Source of the DNA: Escherichia coli
GTDB lineage: Bacteria > Pseudomonadota > Gammaproteobacteria > Enterobacterales > Enterobacteriaceae
Length of the DNA stretch: 64,000 nucleotides
Strand: one strand, 5' to 3'
Assembly (NCBI RefSeq): GCF_003334785.1
Contig: NZ_QOWV01000011.1
The notes under the pieces were generated by a model. That model ran no database searches. It was not told the origin of the DNA and saw only the letters and a list, made by a program, of their open reading frames with translations. The translations under genes were made by a program, and so were the position numbers. Of this stretch, positions 59,426-64,000 are shown piece by piece (position 1 is the first letter of the stretch; each line of letters opens with the position of its first letter).

Positions 59426-59488
59426 GTGCGCCACGCAGCGACGATGAGCGATAAACAAGTTCTTCGAAGCACTCGTAAGAGGCGTGTG

Positions 59489-59581
59489 GTGAGGTGGCCG
59501 AGAGGCTGAAGGCGCTCCCCTGCTAAGGGAGTATGCGGTCAAAAGCTGCATCCGGGGTTCGAATCCCCGCCTCACCGCCAT
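59489..59581 (+). tRNA. serV: tRNA-Ser (anticodon GCU), 93 nt with CCA end
   Basis: GGTGAGGTGGCCGAGAGG...GGTTCGAATCCCCGCCTCACCGCCA; long variable arm; anticodon loop CTGCTAA. Confidence 0.95.
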
Positions 59582-59584
59582 TTG

Positions 59585-59661
59585 CATCCGTAGCTCAGCT
59601 GGATAGAGTACTCGGCTACGAACCGAGCGGTCGGAGGTTCGAATCCTCCCGGATGCACCAT
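59585..59661 (+). tRNA. argV: tRNA-Arg (anticodon ACG), 77 nt with CCA end
   Basis: GCATCCGTAGCTCAGCTGGATAGAGTACTCGGCTACGAACCGAGCGGTCGGAGGTTCGAATCCTCCCGGATGCACCA; gene symbol is positional. Confidence 0.95.
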
Positions 59662-59777
59662 ATTCTCCGAAATCTTCAGCAATGAAGGTATCGAAGAGGT
59701 AGCGGAATTAACCGCAGGCACTAGGGATGATAACGTTGCTTTAGCAACGGCCCGAAGGGCGAGCCGCAAGGCGAGTA

Positions 59778-59796
59778 ATCCTCCCGGATGCACCAT
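59778..59796 (+). repeat. Truncated pseudo-copy of the tRNA-Arg 3' end (AATCCTCCCGGATGCACCA) inside the inter-tRNA spacer
   Basis: 19-nt exact match to the tRNA-Arg 3' end, preceded by a CGTTGC-TTTA-GCAACG hairpin. Confidence 0.8.
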
Positions 59797-59859
59797 CTCT
59801 TAATTGATATGGCTTTAGTAGCGGTATCAATATCAGCAGTAGAATAAGTTTTCCCGATG

Positions 59860-59936
59860 CATCCGTAGCTCAGCTGGATAGAGTACTCGGCTACGAACCG
59901 AGCGGTCGGAGGTTCGAATCCTCCCGGATGCACCAT
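59860..59936 (+). tRNA. tRNA-Arg (anticodon ACG), second identical copy
   Basis: Identical 77-nt sequence, 275 bp after the first copy. Confidence 0.95.
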
Positions 59937-61252: not shown

Positions 61253-62836
<1,584 letters not shown>

Positions 62837-62844
62837 CAGAAAAG

Positions 62845-62917
62845 AAAAAGGCCACTCGTGAGTGGCCAAAATTTCATCTCTGAATTCAGGGATGATGATA
62901 ACAAATGCGCGTCTTTC
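62845..62917 (-). ncRNA. micA: MicA (SraD) small regulatory RNA, about 73 nt
   Basis: Minus strand reads GAAAGACGCGCATTTGTTATCATCATCCCTGAATTCAGAGATGAAATTTTGGCCACTCACGAGTGGCCTTTTT, matching MicA including its terminator hairpin and U-run. Confidence 0.92.
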
Positions 62918-62985
62918 ATATACTCAGACTCGCCTGGGAAGAAAGAGTTCAGAAAATTTTTAAAAAAATTACCGGAGGTGGCTAA

Positions 62986-63501
62986 ATGCCGTTGTTAGAT
63001 AGCTTCACAGTCGATCATACCCGGATGGAAGCGCCTGCAGTTCGGGTGGCGAAAACAATGAACACCCCGCATGGCGACGCAATCACCGTGTTCGATCTGC
63101 GCTTCTGCGTGCCGAACAAAGAAGTGATGCCAGAAAGAGGGATCCATACCCTGGAGCACCTGTTTGCTGGTTTTATGCGTAACCATCTTAACGGTAATGG
63201 TGTAGAGATTATCGATATCTCGCCAATGGGCTGCCGCACCGGTTTTTATATGAGTCTGATTGGTACGCCAGATGAGCAGCGTGTTGCTGATGCCTGGAAA
63301 GCGGCAATGGAAGACGTGCTGAAAGTGCAGGATCAGAATCAGATCCCGGAACTGAACGTCTACCAGTGTGGCACTTACCAGATGCACTCGTTGCAGGAAG
63401 CGCAGGATATTGCGCGTAGCATTCTGGAACGTGACGTACGCATCAACAGCAACGAAGAACTGGCACTGCCGAAAGAGAAGTTGCAGGAACTGCACATCTA
63501 G
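62986..63501 (+). CDS. luxS: S-ribosylhomocysteine lyase (autoinducer-2 synthase), 171 aa
   Basis: Translation [31 protein letters not shown]...; metal-binding HTLEH motif. Confidence 0.97.
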
Positions 63502-63526
63502 TCAGTAAACTATCTTCACAATTAAT

Positions 63527-63556
63527 TGAAAAAAGCCAGTTCAAATGAACTGGCTT
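63527..63556 (-). terminator. Rho-independent terminator of emrB; hairpin shared with the luxS 3' end
   Basis: AGCCAGTT-loop-AACTGGCT stem followed by a T-run on the minus strand. Confidence 0.65.
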
Positions 63557-63564
63557 AGTTGTAC

Positions 63565-64000
63565 TTAGTGCGCACCGCCTCCGCCGCCACCTGCGCCAAA
63601 TGGCGGTTTAGCAAACCACACCAGCCCCAGCAGGACGAGGAATATCCCGGCTGACATCCAGAAGATCTCATTGGCGGAAATAATCAGCCCCTGATTGGTG
63701 ATCTGCTGGGCAATCCAGCCTGATGCCTGCTGTTGCGTCATCCCAAGCCCTTCCAGTTGACTGTACATCGCCTGGGCATTCGGGTTGAACGGGTTTACCG
63801 ACTCAGTCAACTGCGCATGGTGCATCGACTCGCGGTTGGTCCACATGGTCGTGGTTATCGACGTGCCGATAGACCCCGCCAGCGTTCGCGTAAAGTTAGA
63901 GAGGCTCGATGCCGCCGCCAGTCGTTCCGGTGGCAAACCAGACAGCGTAATGGTGGTCAGCGGCATAAAGAAGCAGGCCACCGCAAACCCCTGGATAAAC
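63565..64000 (-). CDS. emrB: 3' part of multidrug efflux MFS transporter EmrB (C-terminal about 145 aa; truncated by window edge)
   Basis: C-terminal TM segments ending ...WFAKPPFGAGGGGGGAH; ORF continues beyond position 64000. Confidence 0.9.
   Translation of the reverse strand, partial: FIQGFAVACFFMPLTTITLSGLPPERLAAASSLSNFTRTLAGSIGTSITTTMWTNRESMHHAQLTESVNPFNPNAQAMYSQLEGLGMTQQQASGWIAQQITNQGLIISANEIFWMSAGIFLVLLGLVWFAKPPFGAGGGGGGAH

Follow-up and report, generated by a model that had tools for sequence, protein, structure and literature searches.

Organization of the gshA-luxS intergenic region

The DNA analyzed here is a stretch of 64,000 nucleotides from Escherichia coli (NCBI RefSeq assembly GCF_003334785.1, contig NZ_QOWV01000011.1), hereafter called the window, and all positions are given in its numbering. 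The gshA and luxS genes are both carried by the plus strand and, according to the coordinates of their open reading frames, are separated by a gap of 149 bp (62837–62985). This gap contains micA, which is the same gene as K-12 MicA (SraD) and is transcribed from the strand opposite to that of both flanking genes. The features of the region are listed below.

61280–62836, plus strand: gshA, glutamate--cysteine ligase coding sequence, with a TTG start and a TGA stop at 62834–62836 (open reading frame list, RefSeq annotation, DNA identical to K-12 b2688)
62845–62917, minus strand: micA (sraD), a 73-nt Hfq-dependent sRNA whose +1 is the G at 62917 (Rfam RF00078; K-12 b4442)
62850–62867, both strands: GC-rich hairpin with a 7-bp stem and a 4-nt loop, the intrinsic terminator of micA (sequence GGCCACTCGTGAGTGGCC)
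62924–62951, minus strand: sigma-E promoter of micA, with the -10 box GTCTGA at 62929–62924 and the -35 box TGAACTCTT at 62951–62943 (from the sequence)
62974–62978, plus strand: Shine-Dalgarno sequence GGAGG of luxS, 7 nt before the ATG (from the sequence)
62986–63501, plus strand: luxS, S-ribosylhomocysteine lyase coding sequence (open reading frame list; RefSeq and K-12 annotation of identical DNA)

Sequence comparison showed that the segment running from gshA to luxS is byte-identical to that of E. coli K-12 MG1655 (100% identity). When the 401 bases at 62700–63100 were used as a query, 5424 of 5426 complete E. coli genomes gave a match, which extended over at least 80% of the query in 5423 genomes and reached at least 99% identity in 5272. 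Further upstream, the tRNA array located at 59488–59935, ahead of yqaB, has just two genes for tRNA-Arg(ACG) besides tRNA-Ser(GCU), whereas the K-12 MG1655 array consists of serV and four Arg copies (argV, argY, argZ and argQ). This difference in copy number indicates that the window belongs to a strain with a shorter tandem array and not to MG1655 itself, despite the identical gshA-micA-luxS segment.

In the RefSeq (PGAP) annotation of strain ER1709, whose DNA is identical, micA is missing and gshA and luxS alone are listed. The same two genes alone are annotated under the match in the best 10 of the 5424 matching E. coli records, and micA is present in the curated K-12 record. The missing micA is an annotation gap and does not reflect biology. 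Three small open reading frames (62858–62998 and 62862–62963 on the plus strand, 62773–62919 on the minus strand) were considered and rejected as mechanical: they overlap the conserved sRNA and its promoter and have no coding support.

The micA gene, its promoter and its fold

The micA gene has been known since 2001, and the best-known role of MicA is the in trans repression of ompA, phoP and other envelope mRNAs. In the window, the Rfam MicA model RF00078 matched the minus strand from 62917 to 62846 over its entire length (positions 1–75 of 75) with a score of 83.9 bits (gathering score 41; E = 8.7e-13 over the 4 kb searched and 1.4e-11 over the whole window), and the K-12 annotation of micA (b4442, 73 nt) maps to 62917–62845. 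The 149-bp gap thus holds the whole MicA gene on the opposite strand, as had been proposed in an earlier reading of this DNA made from the letters alone (the sequence-only reading). The identity of the gene is established by the Rfam match together with the 100% identity to the annotated K-12 micA, a terminator found on the minus strand only and the conserved sigma-E boxes. The distances given in that reading were also recovered: 68 nt separate the MicA +1 (62917) from the luxS ATG, and GGCCACTCGTGAGTGGCC, which occurs only once (62850–62867), has as its first base the 14th nucleotide past the gshA stop codon.

Upstream of the MicA +1, the boxes TGAACTCTT and GTCTGA are correctly placed and agree with the sigma-E consensus described for micA promoters, GGAACTTTT at -35 and GTCAAA at -10 (PMC1804206). 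In Salmonella, the micA promoter is strictly dependent on sigma-E (PMC1804206). The RNA folds into the expected two stem-loops with a z-score of -2.98 relative to shuffled sequences. K-12 MicA, whose sequence is identical, has been described as an RNA that binds Hfq and uses its single-stranded 5' region to repress ompA or phoP (PMC2956633, PMC4618604).

Transcription of luxS across micA

The 5' ends of luxS mRNA have been mapped in E. coli by 5'-RACE and promoter activity was assayed with luc fusions (Udekwu 2010, PLoS One 5:e13449, PMC2956633). Two features of the plus strand could be placed in the window from this work.

62616–62654, plus strand: luxS P1, a sigma-S-dependent promoter inside the 3' end of gshA (5'-RACE and luc fusions, PMC2956633)
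62903–62904, plus strand: proximal 5' end of luxS mRNA, band R3, overlapping MicA by 14–15 nt (our own conversion from PMC2956633, hence approximately 62903/62904)

The start that was enhanced by TAP treatment is a G at -332 relative to the luxS ATG (PMC2956633). This position converts to 62654, inside gshA, where a G is indeed found. P1 was described as a 38-bp rpoS-dependent promoter (PMC2956633), and the primers KU40 and KU41A used in that study map to 62616–62654. A -10-like TATGAT at 62641–62646, with a C at 62640, is present in this fragment. Three luxS mRNA species were reported, with further 5' ends located within micA, and the P1 transcript, longer than 800 nt, extends from its start upstream of the hairpin into luxS (PMC2956633). 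The short species is R3, whose overlap with MicA is given as 14 nt by Udekwu (PMC2956633) and as 15 nt by De Lay & Gottesman 2009, as cited in PMC2956633.

A luxS-proximal fragment without promoter activity was also reported (PMC2956633); its primers, KU33 and KU35, map to 62902–62989. The lack of promoter activity between micA and luxS implies that luxS is transcribed from starts located within or upstream of micA. A consensus scan of 62500–63600 yielded a single plus-strand sigma-70 match, at 62895–62924, which was not above shuffle expectation. It was rejected as a luxS promoter: it predicts a start at about 62931, where no 5' end has been mapped. No convincing sigma-70 promoter for the 62903/62904 start was found in the same scan (consensus, 62500–63600).

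The luxS promoter and 5' untranslated region had been expected to overlap micA, allowing antisense interplay, and the published data bear this out, with P1 transcription starting at 62654 and R3 overlapping MicA by 14–15 nt (PMC2956633). All luxS starts lying downstream of 62917 was the outcome named as contrary to this expectation, and it is contradicted by the published starts at 62654 and at approximately 62903/62904 (PMC2956633). An overlap between MicA and luxS is likewise stated in a 2015 review (PMC4618604).

Conservation of the locus in Enterobacterales

The 5' sequence of MicA was used as a query against one genome per species, which gave at least 120 loci (L003–L122). The order gshA > micA < luxS was found in every one of the loci with enough flanking DNA. 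Geometry was measured on 112 sequences with usable flanks, corresponding to 111 listed loci and the window. Among the matches listed, the gshA-luxS gap is mostly 147–175 bp long, the distance from the gshA stop to the MicA +1 is 74–99 nt in 111 of the 112 sequences, and the distance from the MicA +1 to the luxS ATG is 67–92 nt in 102 of them. These conserved lengths indicate that in nearly all cases the gap is taken up by micA and its promoter.

When 100 distinct Enterobacterales sequences (among the matches listed) were aligned, both sigma-E boxes of micA proved to be conserved, unlike the promoter spacer. The luxS Shine-Dalgarno sequence GGAGG is kept in at least 95% of the 100 aligned sequences, again among the matches listed. 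The MicA stems are nearly invariant, the seventh pair of the terminator being the one that covaries (A-U in 68, U-A in 5 and G-C in 1 of 78 distinct sequences, among the matches listed). Covariation is therefore slight, since the stems almost never change; apart from this seventh pair, it backs hardly more than a single pair in stem-loop 1. The first 27 nt of MicA were set by the search pattern and are uninformative on conservation.

The P1 -10 box, in the form TCTATGATT or TCTATGCTT, was present in about 40 of 110 species (~36%, among the matches listed), in all cases together with a retained RSMI(D) peptide in GshA. This restricted distribution, tied to the protein sequence, means that the long-leader overlap is possibly limited; judging from the presence of the box, it may not extend beyond Escherichia, Salmonella, Citrobacter, Enterobacter and comparable genera.

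Ten species among the matches listed depart from the usual geometry, with a micA-luxS spacer of 123–179 nt instead of about 70 (loci L028, L031, L036, L038, L041, L047, L049, L051, L077 and L082). They belong to Pluralibacter, Superficieibacter, Kluyvera, Pseudocitrobacter and a few other taxa. The extra 55–110 nt begin past the A/T-rich stretch that precedes the micA -35 box and end before the ribosome-binding site of luxS. They are long enough to accommodate an independent luxS promoter, and luxS might have one there that is free of micA overlap.

Processing of luxS mRNA by MicA and RNase III

A dependence of luxS mRNA processing on RNase III, suggested for this locus in the sequence-only reading, had in fact been demonstrated. 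Band R3 disappears in an rnc mutant, increases upon MicA overexpression and decreases when MicA is titrated by anti-MicA (PMC2956633). Plasmid-encoded MicA supplied in trans is enough to shift the luxS isoforms, and RNase III is needed for this effect (PMC2956633). Independently, capture of double-stranded RNA with p19 revealed an abundant cluster of RNase III-generated dsRNA at micA, and more micA antisense transcript was observed in the rnc mutant (bioRxiv 10.1101/510842). R3 is both enhanced by TAP, like a primary transcript, and dependent on RNase III and MicA, two properties that the author could not reconcile (PMC2956633). The antisense overlap with luxS and its processing by RNase III are thus already published, since 2010.

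The consequence of this processing for luxS expression is a separate question. The sole test reported is that LuxS protein was unchanged upon MicA overexpression (data not shown in the paper; PMC2956633), and for this reason the regulatory significance of MicA for luxS is unproven. The overlap could then be an incidental result of tight packing, with MicA acting in trans only and cleavage by RNase III being a by-product clearance that affects neither LuxS nor AI-2. We give this explanation somewhat less than an even chance. Besides the constant level of LuxS, it agrees with the 2015 review, in which the effect of MicA on luxS is still called 'unclear' (PMC4618604), with the proposal that antisense RNA and its cleavage by RNase III may not matter for protein levels under homeostasis (bioRxiv 10.1101/510842), and with the P1 box not being conserved beyond close relatives. 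Against it stand the luxS isoform ratios, which are clearly changed by MicA, the gshA-micA-luxS order kept in every one of the Enterobacterales loci described above that have enough flanking DNA, and the observation in Salmonella that deletion of the luxS 5' region leads to MicA-linked biofilm defects (review PMC4618604).

RNA 3' ends at the hairpin

The two strands of the hairpin at 62850–62867 are not equivalent. On the micA strand the stem is followed by TTTTTCTTTT, and in a consensus scan the terminator-like call was obtained on this minus strand only. On the gshA/luxS strand it is followed by AAAATTTC; no T-tract is present there, and the terminator scan gave no plus-strand call. The same asymmetry was observed in 111 species (among the matches listed), in which the 8 nt following the stem contain 6–7 T on the micA strand versus 0–4 on the gshA strand.

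RNA 3' ends were taken from the Term-seq data of Adams et al. 2021 (PMC7815308, supplementary file 1), K-12 coordinates being converted as window position = 2877719 minus K-12 coordinate. Four 3' ends are relevant.

62842, minus strand: 3' end on the micA strand, found in all three conditions, past the U-tract and slightly beyond the annotated end of the gene
62872, plus strand (gshA): 3' end in M63, 5 nt past the stem, labelled primary gshA 3' end
62858, plus strand (gshA): 3' end in LB at OD 0.4, in the loop, exactly at the dyad axis, labelled primary gshA 3' end
62805, plus strand (gshA): 3' end in LB at OD 2.0, inside gshA, 37 nt ahead of the MicA 3' end at 62842

The 3' end on the gshA strand therefore moves with the growth condition (PMC7815308). 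Ends that fall on the dyad of a palindromic stem, such as 62858, could also be library artefacts.

The hairpin had been described in the sequence-only reading as a terminator shared by gshA and micA. This description holds in part. The hairpin does mark 3' ends on both strands under some conditions, the gshA-strand ends falling at it in two of the three. It is not a canonical bidirectional terminator, because the gshA strand has no U-tract in any of the 111 listed species and because the P1 transcript crosses it. For gshA-strand transcripts it can be no more than a leaky terminator, a pause site or an exonuclease stop.

These data bear on the view that the hairpin is a true bidirectional intrinsic terminator, which would insulate gshA from luxS and leave luxS reliant on its proximal start only. 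The 'primary' label given by Term-seq to the ends at 62872 (M63) and 62858 (LB OD 0.4) is in line with such a role, as is the statement that evidence for a polycistronic gshA-luxS mRNA is lacking (PMC2956633). The one-sided T-tract, the scan that made no call on the gshA strand and the P1 transcript of more than 800 nt, which starts upstream of the hairpin and reaches luxS (PMC2956633), argue the other way and make this view very unlikely.

A Rho-termination region was reported at K-12 2815245 on the plus strand (PMC7815308), which corresponds to about 62474 on the minus strand of the window, antisense to gshA and approximately 370 nt downstream of micA. Its position suggests that some micA transcription reads through the intrinsic terminator into antisense gshA.

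A second hairpin of the window is likewise associated with a 3' end on a strand that lacks a clean U-tract. Located at 63533–63556 between the convergent luxS and emrB genes, it has 10 pairs and was called terminator-like on both strands in the consensus scan. A strong luxS-strand 3' end lies at 63559/63560, 3–4 nt past the stem (K-12 2814159/2814160; Term-seq, PMC7815308). The clear T-run of this hairpin, TTTTCAATTA, belongs to the minus strand and flanks the stem on its luxS side. This location implies that the transcripts affected by it would be those entering luxS in antisense orientation and not those of emrB, the emrB stop (63565) being to the right of the hairpin.

Transcriptional interference as a possible cis effect

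The position of the gshA-strand ends may also be considered in terms of colliding polymerases. The main cis effect of micA would then be transcriptional interference: sigma-E-driven transcription of micA would collide with polymerases coming from gshA or P1, and the hairpin would act as a bidirectional terminator that positions the collision and gates read-through into luxS. The convergence of gshA and micA on one hairpin held in common is compatible with this idea, as are the gshA-strand ends, which are at the hairpin in LB at OD 0.4 (62858) and in M63 (62872) and at 62805 in LB at OD 2.0. MicA is reported to rise on entry into stationary phase (PMC4618604, PMC1804206). For convergent gene pairs of E. 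coli, collision-driven bidirectional termination has been described at hairpins that do not terminate alone (bioRxiv 10.1101/2022.10.23.513370), and steric interference was raised as a possibility in PMC4618604. Against it stands the shift of the luxS isoforms by plasmid MicA in trans with its need for RNase III, which points to RNA pairing (PMC2956633). In addition, the collision preprint (bioRxiv 10.1101/2022.10.23.513370) makes no mention of gshA or micA, and processing could just as well have produced the end at 62805. Altogether we consider it unlikely that interference is the main cis effect.

Collision could also operate besides RNA-RNA processing. Strong firing of micA by sigma-E, as in stationary phase, might create head-on traffic at the hairpin that stops gshA and P1 transcription before luxS, so that envelope stress would gate the sigma-S-driven transcription of luxS. 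Such gating fits the move of the gshA-strand 3' end to 62805, a position that precedes the MicA 3' end by 37 nt, and it might leave a stable gshA 3' RNA of about 152 nt (62654–62805). We offer this proposal as a speculation and think it quite improbable.

The hypothetical RNA extending from the P1 start to the stationary-phase end (62654–62805, plus strand, 152 nt) is predicted to fold with its first 11 nt paired to nt 137–147, which leaves a tail of 5 nt; such a shape could stop exonucleases. It was examined as an unusually structured RNA and was not convincing in this respect (z = -1.85, 9 of 200 shuffled sequences folding at least as well), so that it amounts to no more than a lead towards a possible RNA derived from the gshA 3' region.

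A model for the locus and its relation to known systems

Returning to RNA pairing, which is the reading we prefer, the sequence of events established by published experiments is as follows. RNA polymerase carrying sigma-E transcribes micA leftwards from 62917 and stops at the gene's own hairpin (62850–62867) and U-tract. Transcription of luxS starts at the sigma-S promoter inside gshA (62654), with a proximal 5' end at about 62903/62904, and the long luxS leaders are fully complementary to MicA. As MicA accumulates, a duplex between MicA and the leader forms and is cut by RNase III, converting the long luxS mRNAs into the short form. For P1 transcripts the duplex would probably extend over the full 72–73 nt, and cleavage would be expected near the 5' region of MicA. 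We hold with high confidence the account as a whole, that is, micA in the gap, luxS starts within or upstream of it, processing of the leader by MicA and RNase III, and a hairpin that is the terminator of micA.

Both the gene and its arrangement are known. The locus is useful as a textbook example of how a single sRNA acts in trans (on ompA and phoP) as well as in cis (on the luxS leader), and it carries a practical warning, namely that deletions in the luxS 5' region disturb MicA.

Compared with MicA (SraD) of K-12 (RF00078, b4442), the gene of the window is identical in sequence, position, strand, sigma-E promoter and terminator. The same luxS leaders antisense to MicA and the same processing by RNase III are found in the dual cis/trans MicA of Udekwu 2010 (PLoS One 5:e13449); the notion of a terminator shared with gshA comes from the sequence-only reading and lies outside that paper. 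The convergent gshA and micA genes, which have one hairpin and, at this hairpin or close by, RNA 3' ends of either strand, resemble the pairs described by SEnd-seq and attributed to RNA polymerase collision (bioRxiv 10.1101/2022.10.23.513370). Unlike in those pairs, the U-tract of gshA-micA is on one strand only, and transcripts from a promoter internal to gshA pass the hairpin and continue into the next gene. Finally, the locus resembles Spot 42 with the spf antisense, and ArcZ with its antisense, in that a sense/antisense dsRNA is cut by RNase III and captured by p19 (bioRxiv 10.1101/510842). It differs from both in that the antisense partner of MicA is part of a neighbouring protein-coding mRNA, its 5' leader, and not a separate antisense RNA.
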